Source: an uncultured Gammaproteobacteria bacterium (GTDB lineage Bacteria > Patescibacteriota > Microgenomatia > UBA8517). Taken from it: 64,000 nt of DNA. Of this stretch, positions 6,152 to 48,704 are shown in pieces; positions within the stretch are counted from its first letter, which is position 1; each line of letters starts with the position of its first letter. The notes beneath the pieces were generated by a model that was not told where the DNA came from, did no database searches, and saw only the letters and a program-made list of their open reading frames with translations. The position numbers and the translations under genes were made by a program. Location: contig CAYSJW010000023.1 of assembly GCA_964431555.1 (NCBI GenBank), positions 33,368-97,367 on the forward strand, in the 5' to 3' direction.

Positions 6152-7816
6152 TCAGGGATATATTATTTCACCTTTTAGACAATTCGGTTTGAACGCACAA
6201 ATTTCATAAGTTGCCACATAATTGGAAAGAGATTGGGGGAGATCCCACTGAAAACCCCTATCTTGATCAACGAAATGCAAACTTTTCTCTGTCAGCTCAA
6301 CCTCTGAACCATTGCTCACAACCTTCATTTCAGCCGGTAAAGAAAGCTTTCTATTTGTATTGATCGTTATTTTGGAAGAAGTCGCTGATATTTTCAAAAT
6401 TTTAAAATCGGGTAATTTTGATTCATGGCCTGTCACAAATTCTGTCTTGGTTTGAACAGGAAGAGATGATTTTCCGCCATCCAAGACTTTCCCCGTATAA
6501 GTCCAAATTTGACATTCCATATCCTTCTCTTCTGCTGGGTGGCAAACCTGCTGAGCCCCGAATAATCTCCTTGTCTTATTGTCAAAACGCAAGTTTATGG
6601 CATCGAAATCTGTTAATTTATCCGGGCTGGGAATTAGCTGTTTCTTAAGTTTAGCCTTCACAGGATCATAAATTACAAAAAACCTATCTCTTTCCTCTCC
6701 CTGAGCAAATTCTTTATAAGGCTCTGTATAAATTCCATAAATATACCCATTTCGTGAATCAACGCCAAAAATGGACATGCCATCCCTATCTTGTAAAATT
6801 TTCCAACTCCCTCCATCAAGATCAGCCATCCCTAGCGTTTTTCTCTCTCTGATATTAGCAACTCCACCTCTATAAATAGGTGGCTCTCTAAAAGTTGAAT
6901 AGCGCACATAGAGCCTGTTCCTCGGAATATCCAAGGTTATGAAAGGCCAAGTATTTTCATAGTCAGTTAAAGTAAGTCTAACCTCTTTGTAATCACTACC
7001 GTCTCCTTTGACTTTAGCCAACCATATATCTTTATCATTATTAAATCCCGGAGTTCTTGCTCTTGGAAAAACAATATAGACTGTATCATTCTGGGAATCA
7101 TATTCCATATGTGGTATATAACTATTTACTTTTTCCCTTGTGTGAACAGTTTCTTTAATATTTCCACTTGCTAAATCAAGAAAGGCTGTGGCAATTTGAA
7201 AATCTTTGGTATAAGCAAAGATTAATTTTTGTCTTTGGATATCCAAAGCAACCGGCATAGTATCATCCACCGTCTCACTAGCAAAAATCTGTTTGTGAGT
7301 ACTCCAGTACTTCTCATCAGGTTCTTTACTTGCCATCATAACCCCGGAGATCACCTTGGTAGAGGCGTTAATGTCACTACCAATCCTATAAAAGTAATAG
7401 ATTGTGTCGTTTTCAGGATTGTATAAGATTCCGGGCCTTTGTTTATCTTCAGAAGAGGTGGTTTGTTTAACTTCTTCCCAACCATCGCCGTTAAAATCTG
7501 TCGTGGCTGTCCAAATTTGCCAGACGCCATTTTCGTCCATCTCTTTGTAAATGTAATAAATTTTCTCTCTAACTGTATCTAAAGCTATAGCAGGCTCATA
7601 CTTGGTATAAGGAGACGTTGTTTGTTGTTTCTGCAAAAACTCAGCCAAAGTATATTTGTAAGATTTGTCCGAAGAAGAAAGCTTTGTGATAAAAAGGTAA
7701 ACAATAAACCCAACTACTATAAATGAAGTAATCAAACTCAAAATGATTATCCGATTAAACCCACTCCCTGCAAATCTCCTGGGAAATTTCATAATCATTT
7801 TTATGATAACATCCAA
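6152..7816 (-). CDS. Hypothetical membrane-anchored or secreted protein with repetitive Y/W/G-rich beta-propeller-like segments.
   Basis: 554 aa. N-terminal TM, recurring DG(W/R)...YY(F/I)Y-type blocks. No catalytic motif. Confidence 0.5.
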   Translation of the reverse strand: MDVIIKMIMKFPRRFAGSGFNRIIILSLITSFIVVGFIVYLFITKLSSSDKSYKYTLAEFLQKQQTTSPYTKYEPAIALDTVREKIYYIYKEMDENGVWQIWTATTDFNGDGWEEVKQTTSSEDKQRPGILYNPENDTIYYFYRIGSDINASTKVISGVMMASKEPDEKYWSTHKQIFASETVDDTMPVALDIQRQKLIFAYTKDFQIATAFLDLASGNIKETVHTREKVNSYIPHMEYDSQNDTVYIVFPRARTPGFNNDKDIWLAKVKGDGSDYKEVRLTLTDYENTWPFITLDIPRNRLYVRYSTFREPPIYRGGVANIRERKTLGMADLDGGSWKILQDRDGMSIFGVDSRNGYIYGIYTEPYKEFAQGEERDRFFVIYDPVKAKLKKQLIPSPDKLTDFDAINLRFDNKTRRLFGAQQVCHPAEEKDMECQIWTYTGKVLDGGKSSLPVQTKTEFVTGHESKLPDFKILKISATSSKITINTNRKLSLPAEMKVVSNGSEVELTEKSLHFVDQDRGFQWDLPQSLSNYVATYEICAFKPNCLKGEIIYP

Positions 7817-15962: not shown

Positions 15963-16081
15963 TCATAAAAAAATTATTCCAATCATTCGGAACATCTGAA
16001 ATAACAAAAAATTTTTTTATTTGATTCTACAATTCATTTTCTAAAAGAATTACGAAGCCAATGTTTATATAACTTTCAAAG

Positions 16082-40783: not shown

Positions 40784-41055
40784 TTTTTGTTTTCAAAAAT
40801 ATCTATCTTCTCCTTTTCAGCCAAAGTCACTATTGTCTTTTTCACAGGCATAATTCTCCTCTTCCTACCCGTTAGGGTTCTTTTTTCCTCTCCTTTAAAA
40901 TTCATCGTTCTTACAGTTTTTACATGAACATTGAATACCTCACTGATTAACTGCCTTATCTGACCTTTTCTCATACCAATCCCAACTTTAAAAGTGTACT
41001 TTCCCTTTTTAGCTAACTCTAAACTTTTTTCTGTTATTACCGGTTCTAACTTCAT
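40780..41055 (-). CDS. rplW: 50S ribosomal protein L23.
   Basis: 91 aa. Position and ...ITEKS... block. Confidence 0.88.
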
Positions 41056-41837
41056 TTTGAACTCCTTTTTCTCGATACCCTTTTTAAAGCACTCTTATTC
41101 TTCAACTTTGAAGACTTGATTACTTTCTTTTTTCCTATTTTGTACAAATTCTTCTTTTTATCTTCAATTTCAACTTTCTCTTTTTCCTTCTCCTTTTTGT
41201 CTAAACTTTTTTCTTTCCCAGATAAAACCGCAAAAGCCCCTTTCTCAAAAATTAGGTAATCGCTACTCAAAACATCCATAGCATTTAAATTTTCTAAAAA
41301 TAGAACTTTAAAATTTTCTAAATTTCTAAAGGCTCTCTCCAATCCACTATTCTCTCTTTTGATAACCAAGCAAAAAGAACTTCTATTTTTTATATTCTCT
41401 TTACTTTTTATTATCTCAACCAATCTTTCAGCATCTTTAGTCTTAAATATTTTTGATAAACCGCTGACTACAAAAATCTGATTCTTATCGGCTTTATAAG
41501 ATAAAGAATGTAAAAGTGCCTTTTTGGCCATTTTTTTTGAAACACTTAAAATTCTTCTTACTCCCTTAGGTCCGTGTGCTACCCCTCCACCAACAAAAAT
41601 CGGGGCTGAACGTGATCCATGTCTGGCTCTTCCGGTTCCTTTCTGTCTCCAGATTTTTGCAGTAGATAAACTCACTTCCCCTCTTGTCTTCACTTTAGAC
41701 AGTTCTTTGTGCCTTTTCCACTCATAAACACGCCAAGCCTGAGCTAACAAACCAAAATTTACCTTCTCCTTCAATAAATTGGGCAATTCTAGACTACTCT
41801 TACTTCCCGATACTGTATAGCAATTAATAGTTTTCAT
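41052..41837 (-). CDS. rplD: 50S ribosomal protein L4 with a Lys-rich C-terminal extension.
   Basis: ...[24 protein letters not shown]... Confidence 0.9.
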
Positions 41838-41867: not shown

Positions 41868-42629
41868 CTAAACTTCAGGTTTTACATTTTTATTTTCAAC
41901 GCTACCTTCTGTTTCTTTTGTCTCATCAAATTCCTGAGCTACAACAATGGGTGTTTCCTCAACTAAATCAGAAAGCTTACCTTTACCAATTCTTTTAATT
42001 ATTAAAACATCTCTTGGTGTTCCAGGAACAGGCCCAGAAAGAGCTATAACTCCTTCATTTTCCTTTGTCTCAATCACCATCAGATTTTTCACCGTCACCC
42101 TAGATCTTCCCATTCTTCCAGCCATTCTTTTACCTTTATAAACTCTACCCGGAGTAGTTCCCTGACCTATAGAACCAGGTGCTCTTTCTCTATCCGATTG
42201 TCCGTGTGTTCTCGGGCCACCTGCAAATCCCCATCTTTTCACAACACCTGCAAAACCCTTACCCTTTGAAATACCCGTAACTGTAACAATATCTCCCTTA
42301 GAGAAAATATCAGAAACCTTTATTACATCTCCAACCTTTACATCGGGCTCTTCACTTAGACGAACTTCGCGCAAGAACTTTGGATATTTTTGATCTTTTT
42401 CACTGAAGTTTGGACTTACTTTATCGAAGTGACCTCTAAGAGGTTTTGAAGTGTTTTTTGATTTTCTTTCACCGAATCCTAACTGAACCGCCCAATAACC
42501 ATCCTTTTCAGGGCTTTTAATCTGGGTTACAATACAAGGCCCTGCCTTTATCCATGTTACAGATACTCTTGTCCCTTCGACAAAAGTCTGATCCATAAAT
42601 CTTTTTGATCCTAAAATTGTATCAATCAT
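41868..42629 (-). CDS. rplC: 50S ribosomal protein L3. The start is at the internal ATG 42627-42629.
   Basis: ...FVEGTRVSVTWIKAGPC... no rpsJ immediately upstream. Confidence 0.9.
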   Translation of the reverse strand: MIDTILGSKRFMDQTFVEGTRVSVTWIKAGPCIVTQIKSPEKDGYWAVQLGFGERKSKNTSKPLRGHFDKVSPNFSEKDQKYPKFLREVRLSEEPDVKVGDVIKVSDIFSKGDIVTVTGISKGKGFAGVVKRWGFAGGPRTHGQSDRERAPGSIGQGTTPGRVYKGKRMAGRMGRSRVTVKNLMVIETKENEGVIALSGPVPGTPRDVLIIKRIGKGKLSDLVEETPIVVAQEFDETKETEGSVENKNVKPEV

Positions 42630-42660
42630 AAAATTTCTATAAAGTTTGATATAAATAACC

Positions 42661-42683
42661 AAAAAAAAGGTGCCAGAGGCACC
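42661..42683 (-). terminator. Minus-strand hairpin GGTGCC-UCU-GGCACC followed by U8, about 30 nt upstream of the rplC start codon. Terminator or leader attenuator.
   Basis: Perfect 6-bp GC-rich stem plus T8 on the minus strand, read directly. Confidence 0.6.
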
Positions 42684-42974
42684 TAGTTTGGTACTTCAGG
42701 CAAAACCTAAAGAGGCTATATCCGACGAACCACCTCCATGTAAGTGGGAATTATATCAAAATAAACTTCCGATATGCAATAGGCTGGAAAATATAATTAA
42801 AAAATTCGAATAACCACTGTTTTTCTCAAATCTTTAATAATTATACTTTTATTTAAATCTTCTATCAGTAAACTATAATCTCCATTATTGACTTTTATTT
42901 TTTTTACAATTATTGACAAAGTTTGATAATTGGTATACAAGATTGGAAGAGAGTAAATTTAAATTTTTTCATCA

Positions 42975-43913
42975 ATGGCTAAAAACAAAATAAAAAGGGT
43001 TAAACATTTGGTATTTGGCTTCGGCCAGATAGCTAGTTTTATTGAAAAATATTTTAAAGAAGCTTTTGTTTCCCATGCAGATATAACAAAAGACAAAGAG
43101 ATTGAGGATGAAATCCAAAAGTACGAACCAGAGGCAGTAATAAACACAGCAGCCATAACTTCTCTGGAGGAATGCGAACAAAACAAAATTAAGGCCTTTG
43201 AAGTTAATACCCTTGGAGCTTATAAAATATGGAATATATGCCGAAAAAACGACATATTTTATTGCCATTTCTCTAGTGGTTGTATTTTTAGTAGTAAAAC
43301 CGCAGATGAAATATACCATGAATCCGATACTCCAAACCCTCAAAGTTATTACAGTTGGACAAAAGTTTGGGCAGAAAATTTGCTGGGAAAACCCCCTAAT
43401 CTGTTGATAGTTCGACCAAGACAAGTTATCTCATCAAGTGTTGATAAAAGAAATACACTAGCCAAATGGGTAGTCTATTCCCACTTTATCCCTGACCAAA
43501 ACACAACATCAGTAGTTGAAGACTTCATGCCAGTCTTGGAAGACATGATTAGAAGAAAAATATCCGGCACTTTTCATCTTGCCAATCCGGGAACAATCTC
43601 CCCATTAGAAGTCGCATATTTACTAAAAAAGAAGATTAATCCGAAAATGAAAATACACAAAACTACACTAGAGGAGATAAATAAAAGCTTGATAGCCAAA
43701 AGAGTTTCTACAATCCTATCCACCAAAGCTTTGGAATCTTTGGGGTATGTTTTGCCTCCAATTCGCGAGTCTATCGAAAAAACTATCGAAATTTTTGGCA
43801 AAAATCTTAAAAAGCTCGGTGGATTGAAAGCCTTGGATCCTTTGAGAAATGAAACTAAAAGCAAATTCTCCTTAGCTTCAAAAGTAAAGAATTCTTTCCT
43901 AGAAATTAATTGA
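42975..43913 (+). CDS. NAD(P)-dependent sugar-nucleotide reductase/epimerase of the extended SDR family, RmlD (dTDP-4-dehydrorhamnose reductase)-like.
   Basis: N-terminal LVFGFGQIAS Rossmann turn. PNPQSYYSWTK (YxxxK catalytic pair). Confidence 0.55.
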   Translation: MAKNKIKRVKHLVFGFGQIASFIEKYFKEAFVSHADITKDKEIEDEIQKYEPEAVINTAAITSLEECEQNKIKAFEVNTLGAYKIWNICRKNDIFYCHFSSGCIFSSKTADEIYHESDTPNPQSYYSWTKVWAENLLGKPPNLLIVRPRQVISSSVDKRNTLAKWVVYSHFIPDQNTTSVVEDFMPVLEDMIRRKISGTFHLANPGTISPLEVAYLLKKKINPKMKIHKTTLEEINKSLIAKRVSTILSTKALESLGYVLPPIRESIEKTIEIFGKNLKKLGGLKALDPLRNETKSKFSLASKVKNSFLEIN

Positions 43914-44174
43914 TCATCTCACCTTCTGCTAACCACAAAAAGCTTCCCAACTCAAAATTAAAAGAGGTAAATTTTGAACTTTCTTTCCAATAAATACTTC
44001 CTTTTTTTTAAACCCACTCCAAAAATATTTTCATAATAATAATTTATTTTCTAATTTTAACTTTTGAAGACAACTTAAATAAAAATCAGAAAACAATTGA
44101 AAATATTACCAAATTAAAATCTTATTAATTGAATTGACACTTTTTCAAATTCTACTTTTTATTAATCTTGAGTT

Positions 44175-44681
44175 TTATTGTACGATCTTAAATGTCTTGA
44201 TTATCTCCTCAACTTCAGGTTCAAAATTTACATTCACTAACGTCAAATACTTATTTCTAACCTCCATAACATAAAGGTTTTTAGCATTTGAGTATTTGCT
44301 TTTATATTCGGCTTCAGTATTCCAAACTTCAATCGGTAAATCGTAAGATTGTCCTCCGCCATAAATTAAAACAATAGCATTAGGCCAGCCATAAAGGTTT
44401 TCTTTATCAGTTAAAGCCTTGTAATTTGAAGGATATGAAATCTCAAATCCATACTCCTCATTTCTATAGGTTAACCACCCTTCAGGTATTTTTGATTCCT
44501 CGTTTTTAATTGTTGGCATAGGAGTTTCAGGTTTTTCTACATTGGCAATTGTGGGCTGTTGTAAAGAATTGTTAACTTTTTCCTTAGCATTTTTGCTTTG
44601 CATACCAAGATAGTATGCTCCAAGCAAAGAAGATACAACAATCAAGGTGATAAAAACTCCTAGGAAAAACCCCTTTTTCAT
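44175..44681 (-). CDS. Hypothetical N-terminally anchored or secreted protein.
   Basis: 168 aa. N-terminal TM MKKGFFLGVFITLIVVSSLLGAYYLG. Confidence 0.5.
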   Translation of the reverse strand: MKKGFFLGVFITLIVVSSLLGAYYLGMQSKNAKEKVNNSLQQPTIANVEKPETPMPTIKNEESKIPEGWLTYRNEEYGFEISYPSNYKALTDKENLYGWPNAIVLIYGGGQSYDLPIEVWNTEAEYKSKYSNAKNLYVMEVRNKYLTLVNVNFEPEVEEIIKTFKIVQ

Positions 44682-44736
44682 AAAACGATGATATATAAAA
44701 AAATCATATTATTCAACTGTAAAATGCAGGAAAAGG

Positions 44737-45288
44737 TTATCTGAAAATATTAAGTGTAAATTCCTTGTAAGTTTTGTTGCCATTATTATCGCTTAGGTTA
44801 ACAACAAGAGAGAATTGTCCCTGAATTGACGGTTTTCCCGATAATTCGCACTTTATAGCATTTATAGGTTTCAAAGTATTTTTACATCTAATAAGACTTA
44901 AACCTAAAGGAAGGTTTTCAGCGGACATAGATAAAGTATCATTCTTATCTGGATCATATCCCTCGATTCTAAAATTGTACATTTTATTAACATACCCATC
45001 TGGTAGTAAATTTGTTGTTATTACCGGCAAACTACCAACAATAGTCGGCGTTGGGGAAGTGGGAGAAGTTATCGGCGGAGTCGTTGGAACTTGAGCTCGC
45101 GGCTTAAAATAGGTTTGTCTATTAGCAAGCATAACCGTCAAAGGAAGTGAAAGTAAAATAAACAAAAGTACAGCCAACGAGGCACTTTGTGTTCTATCGA
45201 GCCTTTTAAGGTTTACAATATACTTCTTTATTTTTTCTCTAAATTTCAGATCTCCCTGAAAAAAGCTTTTTTCAGATAATAAATCCAT
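44737..45288 (-). CDS. Membrane-anchored surface protein with a Pro/Thr-rich linker and a putative Ig-like (He_PIG-type) domain.
   Basis: TM, then TTPPITSPTSPTPT, then LLPDGYVNKMYNFRIEGYDPD...LPLGLSL, which matches the putative-Ig-domain pattern LP.G..G..Y....LP.GLSL. Confidence 0.55.
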   Translation of the reverse strand: MDLLSEKSFFQGDLKFREKIKKYIVNLKRLDRTQSASLAVLLFILLSLPLTVMLANRQTYFKPRAQVPTTPPITSPTSPTPTIVGSLPVITTNLLPDGYVNKMYNFRIEGYDPDKNDTLSMSAENLPLGLSLIRCKNTLKPINAIKCELSGKPSIQGQFSLVVNLSDNNGNKTYKEFTLNIFR

Positions 45289-45368
45289 TACTTAAATTTA
45301 ATAGTATTAATTTGTCTTGTCAATAAAAGTAGTTGATTACAAAATTAGTACTTCTTTATATGAGATAA

Positions 45369-45605
45369 TCAATTACTGCGACCTGGCGGGGTCACCGGTT
45401 TATTATTTCCCCTTTGAACTGGAGTTGCAGGTTTTTTAAATTGCCCAGGTGGTGTAACAATACTACTTTGATTATTTTGATCTATATCTTTTGCAGCCAA
45501 AGTTACAACCGGTAATAATATTAAAAGTAAGAAAAGAAAAAAAAGGAAAAAAGCATTTTGCCTTAATACCCTTTTATATTTCTTTAACGAAAATTTTCTA
45601 TCCAT
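45369..45605 (-). CDS. Small membrane-anchored Pro-rich protein (78 aa).
   Basis: TM (FFLFFLFLLLILLPVVTLAA) and repeated PATP/PVTPPG. Confidence 0.4.
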   Translation of the reverse strand: MDRKFSLKKYKRVLRQNAFFLFFLFLLLILLPVVTLAAKDIDQNNQSSIVTPPGQFKKPATPVQRGNNKPVTPPGRSN

Positions 45606-45659
45606 ATTATCTGGCTAATAGTTAATAACTATAAGTTAAGGTATTATAATATATCAATT

Positions 45660-46838
45660 ATGATTGTCAAGTGTTATAAAAATTTACCACTTTATCTTTT
45701 TATCATTTTGCTAAGCACAAACATCTTCATATTTTGGCCATTTTCTCAAATAGTGTACGAGGTTCCTAAAGTATGGTTTGTCAATCGTATTATTGAAATT
45801 CTTGGAATTGCCGGACTACTACTTTCACCTCGATTAAAAAAGAAAAAATATGATAAGAATTTATTTATACTAGTTATTGGTTTTCTTTCTCTTGCAATCA
45901 TAAGTAGTTTAGTCGGAGTAGATTTACAAAAAAGTTTTCTGGGTAATTATTACAGAGCTGACGGACTGTTCACAACGATACATTTTCTAATTCTTTTTCT
46001 GTTTTTGCATTTGTACTTTCAAAAAACATGGTTGGAAAGTATATTTAAAGCAGTAGCATATTCAAATTTCATCCTCAACCTACTGGTTATTTTATGTTTT
46101 TTCTTAGCCTTGTCGGGAAAGTACATTTTTGAGAATTGGGATGGTAGTTTCGGCGCTAACTTTGGCAACCCAAACTTTTTGGCAGGCTATTTGTTGGTTA
46201 CATTACCTTTCACCTATTATTTCTTTGAGAAAAAGAAAAAAGCAATCGCTAAACTACCATTCACCCTTCAGTTGGTAGGGATAATACTAACCGGATCATT
46301 GGCAGGAATAATCGGCGCGATATTATATGTTGCCTACCTCACATATATAAATTTAATAAATAACAAATTTATCATGGTAATATTGATATTGATTGCAATT
46401 ACTGGGCTTAGTTTTGTACTTAGCAATCAAAGGACTTATAGAAATGGATTTTTAGTAGCAGAAAGCAGAGAAAGGATTATAATGAAAGGATTAATAGCAT
46501 TTAAGCAAAGGCCATTTTTTGGTTGGGGATGGGCTAATTTTGATTACGCTTTTGATTCTGTTGATTGGCCGATAAAAATTAACGATGATATTTACGTTGA
46601 CAAAGCACACTCAAGTCTTTTGGAAATTCTGGTAACTACAGGAGTCTTCGGATTTACAATTTACTTTTTTCTCCTTTCAAGAATTGGAAGAAATATCTAT
46701 TTTTCAACGAACAAGTATAAGAAATATTTATTTTCTGCTTTTGTAATTTTAATACTACATATGCAGACAAATATTATATCCGTATCTGAAGAACTATTTT
46801 TTTGGATTCTTGCTGGATTCTCAGTTAAAAATTATTAA
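45660..46838 (+). CDS. O-antigen ligase/polymerase (Wzy_C)-family polytopic membrane protein.
   Basis: About 10 TM. Periplasmic-loop motif ...DKAHSSLLEILVTTGVFG..., resembling the conserved AHN.YLq.l.E.G block of WaaL/Wzy_C. Confidence 0.55.
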   Translation: MIVKCYKNLPLYLFIILLSTNIFIFWPFSQIVYEVPKVWFVNRIIEILGIAGLLLSPRLKKKKYDKNLFILVIGFLSLAIISSLVGVDLQKSFLGNYYRADGLFTTIHFLILFLFLHLYFQKTWLESIFKAVAYSNFILNLLVILCFFLALSGKYIFENWDGSFGANFGNPNFLAGYLLVTLPFTYYFFEKKKKAIAKLPFTLQLVGIILTGSLAGIIGAILYVAYLTYINLINNKFIMVILILIAITGLSFVLSNQRTYRNGFLVAESRERIIMKGLIAFKQRPFFGWGWANFDYAFDSVDWPIKINDDIYVDKAHSSLLEILVTTGVFGFTIYFFLLSRIGRNIYFSTNKYKKYLFSAFVILILHMQTNIISVSEELFFWILAGFSVKNY

Positions 46839-47026
46839 TATTTTTAAAAAATACTATATCTTATAATATTAACAAGTTGATATCTATAATTAAACTATTA
46901 AATTAACTTTGACTTCTCTCTCTAACCTAAACTTTCTTTGTAAACAAACCAAAATAACTGAAACACAAAATTAACAAATCTTTCATTTAAAACTTATCGG
47001 GGAGAAAAGTTACTAGAATGTTCCAA

Positions 47027-47341
47027 CTACATCTTAATTTCTATACTTACCCCAGCGGGTAAATCTAGATTTGATAAAGAATCTATAGTGCGAGGAGTAG
47101 GATCAAGAATATCTATTAAACGTTTGTGGATCAAAACTTCAAAATGTTCCTGAACTCTTTTAGCTCCGCGGGAAGTAGAAGGAACAACTGGAATCAAAGT
47201 TCTTTTAGTGGGTAAGGGGATTGGTCCTTTTATTCTTGCTCCAGTTGCCATAGCAGTATCAATTATCTTAAGCACAGCTTCATCCATCACTCTGTGATCG
47301 TAGCTTTTTAACTTGACTCTGAGCCGTGAGTTTCCTGCCAT
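47027..47341 (-). CDS. rpsJ: 30S ribosomal protein S10. It sits next to tuf and is detached from rplC.
   Basis: [22 protein letters not shown]... start at ATG 47339-47341. Confidence 0.92.
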
Positions 47342-47352
47342 AGTCTTAAAGA

Positions 47353-47378
47353 GCAAAAAAAATCCCCTTATTCAGGGG
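47353..47378 (-). terminator. Short hairpin (CCCCU-GAAUA-AGGGG on the minus strand) followed by a U-run, between tuf and rpsJ. Likely a partial terminator or attenuator.
   Basis: Read directly. 5-bp GC stem plus T8. Confidence 0.45.
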
Positions 47379-47393
47379 AAATACATAATTTGA

Positions 47394-48593: not shown

Positions 48594-48704
48594 ATTTTTA
48601 GTATACCAAAGTGTTGTTCAATAAAACAAGGGCATATTGCCCTTACTTGCGAGTAATTATATTAAACCCAAATTTAATCTGTCAATACCTAAACTCTCAA
48701 CTTT

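Follow-up and report, generated by a model that had tools for sequence, protein, structure and literature searches.

The window analyzed here is a 64-kb stretch of DNA from an ultra-small bacterium of the Candidate Phyla Radiation (CPR; Woesebacteria-like, Microgenomates), and all positions are given in its numbering. Its minus strand carries rpsL, rpsG, fusA, tuf, and rpsJ in that order, and rplC at the head of a unit that continues with rplD, rplW, rplB and further genes. Between rpsJ, encoding ribosomal protein (r-protein) S10, and rplC, encoding L3, lies a gap of 4,397 bp with five genes on both strands: a nucleoside diphosphate (NDP)-sugar short-chain dehydrogenase/reductase (SDR), three small minus-strand proteins, and a polytopic membrane protein of the Wzy_C family (Table 1). 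In a canonical S10 operon, rpsJ immediately precedes rplC within one transcription unit. The window is not organized in this way, and rplC is preceded by a promoter-like box and a leader. It is this junction, the rplC leader, and the origin of the genes in the gap that concern us here.

Because the sequence comes from a metagenome assembly and its spacers are AT-rich and of low complexity, two contigs might have been joined artificially in a spacer. However, the identical arrangement is found on ENA contig k141_197345 (116 kb; 1 mismatch in 21 kb) and on the independently assembled JGI contig Ga0129301_1000048 (53 kb), which is 99.91% identical to the window (17,087 bp compared; 14 mismatches, 1 indel). 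These contigs exclude the misassembly that a preliminary description of the locus had named as its possible undoing, and we regard an artifact of this kind as practically dismissed. Coordinates, gene calls, and the second assembly thus agree with that description on the 4.4-kb separation of rpsJ from rplC and on the listed content of the gap, which is indeed cell envelope-related.

Table 1. Features of the window and of the corresponding gaps in relatives (L numbers denote related loci; aa, amino acids; ORF, open reading frame)
Feature	Position	Strand	Description
rplC (L3)	41868..42629	-	TIGR03625, 232.8 bits; heads the rplC-rplD-rplW-rplB... unit
Terminator	42661..42684	-	AGGUGCC-UCU-GGCACCU (42684-42668) followed by U8 (to 42661)
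Antiterminator	42679..42694	-	GUACC (42694-42690) pairs with GGUGC (42683-42679) of the terminator 5' arm
Hairpin P1	42711..42737	-	GGAGGU (42737-42732) pairs with GCCUCU (42716-42711); window fold z=-2.9
5' motif	42716..42739	-	AUGGAGGUG, readable as mini-ORF MEVVRRI*
Predicted extended -10 promoter of rplC	42750..42758	-	TGATATAAT, read from the sequence
NDP-sugar SDR	42975..43913	+	3,5-epimerase/4-reductase (rhamnose-synthase) type; RmlD_sub_bind, 93.9 bits
sm168	44175..44681	-	168 aa, N-terminally anchored; weak PsbP_2-like domain, E=0.024, below family cut-off
He_PIG (PF05345) Ig-like protein	44737..45288	-	183 aa, N-terminal anchor, Pro/Thr linker PTTPPITSPTSPTPT
sm78	45369..45605	-	78 aa, small secreted/anchored protein with hydrophobic segment and two VTPPG repeats
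Promoter-like site TTGACA-16-TATAAT	45643..45670	-	12/12 matches; putatively serves the sm78-HePIG-sm168 unit
Wzy_C (PF04932)/WaaL-fold polytopic membrane protein	45660..46838	+	392 aa; Pfam 56.2 bits vs cut-off 31.7, E=4.5e-15
rpsJ (S10)	47027..47341	-	NCBIfam PRK00596, 115 bits; Pfam Ribosomal_S10
tuf-rpsJ hairpin	47363..47379	-	UCCCCU-GAAUA-AGGGGA followed by U8; from terminator scan, omitted in the preliminary description
Promoter-like site TTGACA-18-TATAAT in fusA-tuf spacer	48656..48685	-	12/12 matches; likely start of a tuf-rpsJ transcript
FtsJ/TlyA-like methyltransferase in relatives	L009 8086-8640, L010 9334-9882, L011 8747-9283, L082 895-1449		~180 aa; in the gap, directly downstream of rpsJ
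GT87 glycosyltransferase	gap of L003		
GNAT, NUDIX (twice), SRAP	gaps of relatives		
PD-(D/E)XK nuclease, DEAD-box helicase, RRM protein, and zincin-like set	L007, L092, L094, L095, L099, L119		second sub-clade
Four small membrane proteins	gap of L114		

The rpsJ-rplC junction in relatives

To place the junction among relatives, we used an L3-anchored sample to which GTDB species representatives and JGI metagenomes contributed 80 loci each, and onto which S10, EF-Tu, L3, L4, and all proteins of the gap were mapped. The sample was chosen by L3 similarity rather than as a full census of the phylum, and it is sparse near the lineage of the window: the nearest relatives are Woesebacteria/Microgenomates with 56-68% L3 identity, and among the GTDB representatives and JGI metagenomes no relative above ~68% was found except the source population itself. 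After de-duplication, 41 distinct Woesebacteria-like loci with the rplC leader were obtained, and rpsJ was present in the fetched upstream DNA of 27 of them. The two genes are 130-173 bp apart in ten of these 27 loci, and the other 17 carry 0.3-7.6 kb of extra DNA (320-821 bp in eight, 1.3-2.6 kb in seven, 4.4 kb in the window, and 7.6 kb in L092). At five further leader-bearing loci, rpsJ is absent within 2-10 kb upstream. The leader-negative loci, from other phyla and some other CPR bacteria, have a median gap of 47 bp, with 87 of 95 under 200 bp. The rpsJ-rplC link, previously taken to be universally conserved, is therefore not so in this clade. The synteny comparison that had been proposed gives a mixed answer: rpsJ and rplC are contiguous in the ten relatives mentioned above but not at the other 17 loci, and the five-gene block is confined to the lineage of the window. 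None of the gap proteins of the window was found at any related locus examined, so an ancestral arrangement shared by all related lineages, which would have spoken against an insertion, is not what is observed.

The cargo carried at this junction by relatives is heterogeneous, mostly unrelated to the envelope, and includes many orphans. In one Woesebacteria sub-clade, the gene next to rpsJ codes for an FtsJ/TlyA-like methyltransferase, which looks like an older shared insertion and is maybe translation-related. In a second sub-clade, a 223-aa PD-(D/E)XK nuclease-like gene lies directly upstream of the rplC leader at all six loci listed in Table 1; L007 and L095 have in addition helix-turn-helix (HTH) and toxin-antitoxin-like genes (HicA/B-like in L007), and rpsJ is more than 10 kb away in L007. 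Taken together, these distributions argue for the rpsJ/rplC junction being a recurrent, clade-wide site of gene gain, with the window among its larger instances. A literature search for a described split of rpsJ and rplC in CPR bacteria returned nothing relevant.

The rplC leader

The leader of rplC is about 80 nt long, and its parts follow one another in the order extended -10 box, 5' motif, hairpin P1, spacer, terminator, and rplC ATG. With a 7-bp stem containing five GC pairs, a 3-nt loop, and U8, the terminator has the features of an intrinsic terminator, and it ends 31 nt before the start codon. The preliminary description had noted a hairpin plus U8 some 30 nt upstream of rplC and proposed that it may insulate the ribosomal operon from the island. 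The hairpin is where it was said to be, but it is conserved with or without cargo, which removes the grounds for viewing it as an island insulator. In relatives, a TGnTATAAT-like box is followed 7-11 nt on by R-UG-GAG-GUG (starting at 42739 in the window), the spacer between P1 and the terminator often reads AGGAUGUGCC, and a U-run of U6-8 after the terminator leaves 8-30 nt (occasionally ~100 nt) to the rplC ATG. The hairpin itself, G[C/U]GCC-UCY-GGC[G/A]C with its U-run, precedes rplC in essentially all Woesebacteria-like relatives. In all, the leader is kept in about 40 distinct relatives, whether rpsJ is 130-170 bp away or more than 10 kb of other genes lie upstream.

The element is also specific to its position. 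When the 2.1 Mb of fetched DNA were searched with a profile built from 26 leaders, 50 matches had E<0.1, and every one of them was directly upstream of rplC and on the same strand; the profile search found a single copy in the window. A covariance model of P1 and the terminator (R1) had 34 matches. Searches of Rfam 15 at E<=1 with the window and the leaders of two relatives revealed no credible family; sub-threshold matches to SraG (on the opposite strand), Atu_C8, and isrK were judged to be chance. A literature search for a described rplC leader in CPR bacteria likewise found nothing relevant, and the leader is a conserved, rplC-specific, and apparently undescribed element.

Outside the Woesebacteria-type group, three loci (L103, L108, and L109) lack this leader but have GGAGG-rich sequence ~30-130 nt before rplC, followed by a hairpin GCGAUCC-NUCC-GGAUCGU and a U-run. 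Hairpins with U-runs of differing sequence also precede rplC in WWE3 (L016), CPR3 (L019), and L040. Attenuator logic in CPR bacteria may thus be wider than model R1 detects.

Structure in the leader was analyzed with single-sequence folds and a covariance-model alignment, which were used instead of RNAalifold on a MAFFT alignment because the latter mis-registered the hairpins and returned no structure. Pairing in the terminator is complete (100%) across 20 Woesebacteria-type leaders, and two of its pairs show compensatory changes: four sequences have UA for CG, and two have AU for GC. When nascent transcripts of about 40 leaders were folded after being cut before the 3' arm of the terminator, the 5' arm and loop of the terminator paired with an upstream strand. 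In Woesebacteria-type leaders this antiterminator is formed by AGGA-U-GUGCC and GGCGC-C-UCC, whereas the antiterminator strand of more distant leaders is either the 5' GGAGGU or a GGCAC located upstream, making three forms overall. Although the alignment was not fitted to this helix, 92.5% of its positions are paired, as opposed to 37-56% in slid controls, and three pairs, including the A-U of the window, have changed on both sides. The participation of the loop in antiterminator pairing accounts for the conservation of its CCUCC-like sequence. A conserved alternative helix that sequesters a terminator arm is one of two hallmarks of an attenuator, the other being condition-dependent termination, and such a helix is present in these leaders; that the leader has a regulatory output is something we infer.

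The contrast with the hairpin between tuf and rpsJ, which varies freely or is absent among relatives while the rplC element is conserved, indicates that the latter is a terminator/antiterminator switch rather than a generic terminator or an adaptation to the island. Could it nevertheless be a plain intrinsic terminator that insulates rplC from upstream transcription and does not switch? Its canonical GC hairpin with U8 and its greater stability relative to the antiterminator are what such a terminator would have, and read-through into rplC would need stopping, as no terminator was found after sm168 or rpsJ. On the other hand, a plain terminator does not explain why the sequence, loop included, is conserved at only 50-68% L3 identity, why a promoter-like box stands at a fixed distance upstream, why a complementary segment that could sequester the 5' arm together with the loop exists in three conserved forms, or why the element is present where rpsJ is the only upstream neighbor (L005, L085). 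We therefore find the absence of a switch unlikely. The two roles are not mutually exclusive in any case, and the rplC terminator may stop upstream read-through as a side effect.

The 5' end of the leader has properties of its own. Since RUGGAGGUG starts 7-11 nt past the -10 box in Woesebacteria-type leaders, it would lie at or next to the predicted 5' end of the transcript. Read in frame 0, it opens a mini-ORF whose length in 39 leaders is 4-12 codons (7 codons precisely in 20 of these) and which mostly begins M-E-V-(V/I/R). Its length is held even where the downstream sequence has fully diverged, whereas ORFs in frame +2 range from 1 to >28 codons, and in most Woesebacteria-type leaders its stop codon immediately precedes the 3' strand of P1. 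All codon positions within the first 9 nt are conserved, and runs of regulatory codons are absent. Conservation at all positions points to a constraint at the RNA level and argues against a purely peptide-level account. GGAGGUG is at the same time a perfect Shine-Dalgarno (SD)-like sequence, while SD use across the genome is weak. We considered that it might be a remote ribosome-loading site replacing the SD sequence missing from rplC, but rejected this idea because the weak use of SD sequences genome-wide makes their absence from rplC unremarkable. The motif could act through occupancy by ribosomes or 30S subunits, through binding of an r-protein (e.g. L4), or through alternative pairing purely at the RNA level, and we give preference to none of the three.

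As for what might set the switch, our guess is that the effector would be either the translating ribosome or an r-protein, L4 for instance. In L4 of this bacterium (rplD, 41052-41837, 261 aa), the last ~55 aa form a Lys/Glu/Ser-rich tail, and the acidic C-terminal tail of L3 reaches ~30 aa past the family model; the tailed L3 and L4 are candidate effectors of the leader. A bolder and rather doubtful proposal is that the leader is a new feedback device for the main r-protein operon, in which ribosomes or 30S subunits on the mini-ORF or GGAGGUG would decide whether the 5' motif and spacer are free to build the antiterminator or the terminator forms instead. If this were true, ribosome abundance would directly set transcription of r-protein genes in Microgenomates, and a self-contained promoter plus attenuator would explain how the rigid rpsJ-rplC link became a recurrent insertion site.

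A proposed operon boundary and its cargo

If rplC has a promoter of its own, how is rpsJ expressed? In the window, the tuf-rpsJ spacer measures 52 nt and is taken up by a hairpin with U8 and then GCUCUUUAAGA directly before the ATG, so that a promoter for rpsJ alone would not fit; the spacer of relatives is variable (16-90 nt), and the hairpin is often absent. Most likely, rpsJ rides on the tuf transcript. Calls of its start differ among ENA (ATG at 47341, 104 aa), JGI (86 aa), and the ORF list (TTG at 47356, 109 aa). The true start may be the TTG, which would overlap the U8 of the tuf-rpsJ hairpin.

The sequence GCUCUUUAAGA (47344-47354, minus strand), 2 nt before the rpsJ ATG, is a perfect match to the BoxA consensus GYTCTTTAANA, and autoregulation of NusE (S10) via BoxA elements upstream of rpsJ has been proposed (PMC5725501). 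A single match is no better than chance, with 1.2 expected per 64-kb window, and it is noteworthy only for its position and because a related GCAC(C/U)UU(A/G)A occupies the same place before rpsJ in many relatives. Alternatively, GCUCUUUAAGA codes for an N-terminal extension from the TTG at 47356.

The explanation that we favor, with a probability of roughly 0.7, is that the 4.4-kb segment is lineage-specific native cargo at an operon boundary that is open clade-wide, and that the rplC leader has the hairpin before rplC as its terminator arm. On this account, rpsJ would be expressed as the tail of the tuf unit, rplC and the genes that follow it would be under their own extended -10 promoter and ~80-nt terminator/antiterminator leader, and the rpsJ/rplC junction would be the boundary of two transcription units. 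Insertions would be tolerated there since they leave co-transcription unbroken. Several observations weigh against this explanation. Variation in the leader is limited: double changes in the antiterminator amount to only 4 cells, and its observed percentage of pairing was attained in 6 of 500 shuffles. P1 is paired in 85% of cells of the alignment, but its register shifts between leaders and clean covariation is not seen. The terminator is thermodynamically stronger than the antiterminator, although it stands in front of a highly expressed operon. The terminator scan found no intrinsic terminator after rpsJ or sm168, and transcription across the island is possibly less tidy than proposed. Finally, the closest relatives have only ~66% L3 identity, which precludes reconstruction of when and by which route the cargo arrived.

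The proposed native origin of the cargo must be weighed against two other accounts of why these genes are found here. Had the segment arrived by horizontal transfer, as a mobile genomic island that inserted itself into the S10 operon, one could understand why the cargo is missing from all related loci, why the He_PIG protein is an orphan, and why some relatives have mobile/defense-like genes at this site, such as the HicA/B-like and HTH genes of L007. However, the comparison of GC content with the flanks that had been suggested for the island shows no deviation beyond the other non-ribosomal genes of the window: the gap genes, with GC of 0.31-0.35 and GC at third codon positions (GC3) of 0.28-0.32, are inside the range of the latter (GC 0.295-0.42, GC3 0.21-0.37), and the apparent dip relative to the flanks is caused by the ribosomal genes being slightly richer in GC. 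Moreover, family profile searches detected no integrase or transposase among the five genes, no tRNA adjoins the segment (the only one in the window is at 16081), and flanking direct repeats are limited to short, AT-rich ones at chance level. The best homologs of the SDR and the Wzy_C protein are from Woesebacteria, Microgenomates, and other Patescibacteria, where they occupy other genomic sites, and those of sm78 are from Woesebacteria/Microgenomates as well. Acquisition of a mobile element is thus very improbable, and the term island, if it is meant to convey foreign or mobile DNA, is unsupported. We conclude that at least two native modules were relocated to form this mosaic segment.

Selection of envelope genes for this particular site, such that surface-glycan synthesis is co-regulated with ribosome synthesis and coupled to growth rate, would fit with the GT87 glycosyltransferase, an envelope enzyme, at the same junction of L003 and with the four small membrane proteins of L114. 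Yet the cargo of relatives is mostly not envelope-related, two of the three transcription units of the island are oriented away from the ribosomal genes or opposite to them, with promoter-like sites of their own, and in relatives these genes function at other loci. We consider such selection highly improbable and retain the native-cargo explanation.

According to this explanation, the first module would consist of the SDR, of the NDP-6-deoxyhexose 3,5-epimerase/4-reductase type and drawn from native CPR envelope genes. The second would comprise the WaaL-fold Wzy_C enzyme with the divergent sm78 and two orphan anchored surface proteins, expressed from back-to-back promoters. Both perfect promoter-like sites of Table 1 match the sigma-70 consensus, and the one assigned to the sm78 unit extends over the opening codons of the Wzy_C gene, which is divergent; promoter-like sites as a whole are enriched in the region (45 found vs 26 expected). 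The genes of the island are unremarkable surface-glycan and surface-protein genes from the gene pool of CPR bacteria.

Although the SDR matches RmlD_sub_bind, it scores well below the cut-off of the RmlD equivalog TIGR01214 (93.9 vs 224 bits), and identity with RmlD was rejected. Its best relatives in the PDB are 4QQR, deposited as '3,5-epimerase/4-reductase', and 7JID, a UDP-L-rhamnose synthase. A 72%-identical homolog is encoded in metagenome-assembled genome QZGF01 within a cluster of nucleotidyltransferase, dehydratase-like, and SDR genes, among whose neighboring genes no RmlC-type domain was recorded; in the same genome, rpsJ and rplC are just 142 bp apart. The structural relatives and the lack of a recorded RmlC-type domain suggest that the SDR could carry out the conversion of an NDP-4-keto-6-deoxyhexose to an NDP-6-deoxyhexose as a single enzyme.

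The Wzy_C protein resembles the WaaL O-antigen ligase in its Pfam score above the cut-off, in its fold, and in an invariant Arg/His in an external loop region (R272 and H317, unchanged in 34 homologs). The likeness came from the fold search, as a sequence search of the PDB gave no match: the best Foldseek match in the PDB of an AlphaFold model with a confidence (pLDDT) of 88 was WaaL 7TPG_B (E=3.6e-5, TM score 0.60), followed by the SEDS proteins FtsW and RodA. The two proteins differ in that identity is only ~12%, and ligation of O-antigen to lipid A-core is not assumed. CPR bacteria are not known to possess lipid A-core, and the acceptor must therefore be a different one. The Wzy_C family also covers O-antigen polymerases and protein O-oligosaccharyltransferases of the PglL/TfpO type. 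Homologs of the gene, both those with 56-57% identity and more distant ones, are found in unrelated neighborhoods. In L166/L167, however, a homolog of sm78 (49% identity) is in the same divergent position beside the Wzy_C gene, and this retained pairing indicates that sm78 and the Wzy_C gene moved together as a unit.

The He_PIG domain occupies residues 88-181 of its protein (Pfam 31.6 bits vs a cut-off of 24), which among 5.8 billion proteins matched only itself and is therefore an orphan. In a comparison made post hoc, three of the four T-P-P motifs in ~19,300 aa of window proteins were found in sm78 and the He_PIG protein. The motif appears just after the N-terminal hydrophobic segment, as two VTPPG in sm78 and in its L166 homolog (6531-6794), and it recurs in other proteins encoded beside Wzy_C genes, as PTTPP in the He_PIG protein and as PVTPPSP in the partner in L164 (481-816). 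V/P-T-P-P after a signal or anchor is seen in Wzy_C-adjacent proteins at two independent loci. The Wzy_C enzyme may be a protein O-glycosyltransferase with the adjacent secreted T-P-P proteins as its substrates, an idea that we offer only as a lead.

Comparison with known systems

Beyond the preliminary description, what is new here is the clade-wide openness of the junction and the conserved, apparently undescribed rplC leader. The link between rpsJ and rplC underlies the 'syntenic ribosomal block' used for binning and placing uncultivated bacteria. In a sizeable CPR clade, S10 can be kilobases away from this block or off the contig, and this affects marker-based binning, the selection of contigs, and trees built from concatenated proteins. 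The operon boundary, with a promoter and attenuator before rplC, would give this plasticity a mechanistic reason. The leader comes from a phylum for which almost nothing is known about gene regulation, and as a small and well-defined element it is a potential native regulatory part for the emerging genetic tools of Patescibacteria.

In cyanobacteria, plastids, and archaea, it is normal for rps10 to be the last gene of the str/tuf unit and detached from the rplC cluster. The CPR arrangement is similar in that rpsJ directly follows tuf and is apart from rplC, but it differs in that rpsJ stays on the same strand at 0.13-10 kb from rplC, with a gap content that varies between species. The layout of the leader recalls ribosome-mediated (leader-peptide) attenuators of the trpL type, which have a very short 5' ORF overlapping the first hairpin and, downstream of it, antiterminator and terminator helices that exclude each other. 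Unlike the leader peptides of these attenuators, the CPR mini-ORF has no runs of regulatory codons and appears to be leaderless, starting 7-11 nt past the -10 box, and its translation is putative.

The leader of the Escherichia coli S10 operon mediates L4-dependent transcription attenuation that also requires NusA (PMC3616713). Both it and the CPR leader are structured 5' leaders before a large operon containing rplC-rplD-rplW-rplB, and both place an intrinsic-terminator-like hairpin tens of nucleotides before the first start codon. The E. coli leader, however, is reported to be restricted to Gammaproteobacteria; the CPR leader precedes rplC rather than rpsJ, shows no similarity to it in sequence or in Rfam, and has a conserved antiterminator and the 5' GGAGGUG/mini-ORF. 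Closest to the CPR leader in the published record is the candidate 'L4' r-leader that Archaeoglobi carry before rplC-rplD-rplW-rplB (Eckert and Weinberg 2020, PMC7247131). That motif is archaeal, distinct, and listed in Rfam, in which the CPR leader has no match, but like the CPR leader it stands directly before an rplC-led operon in which S10 is not the first gene.

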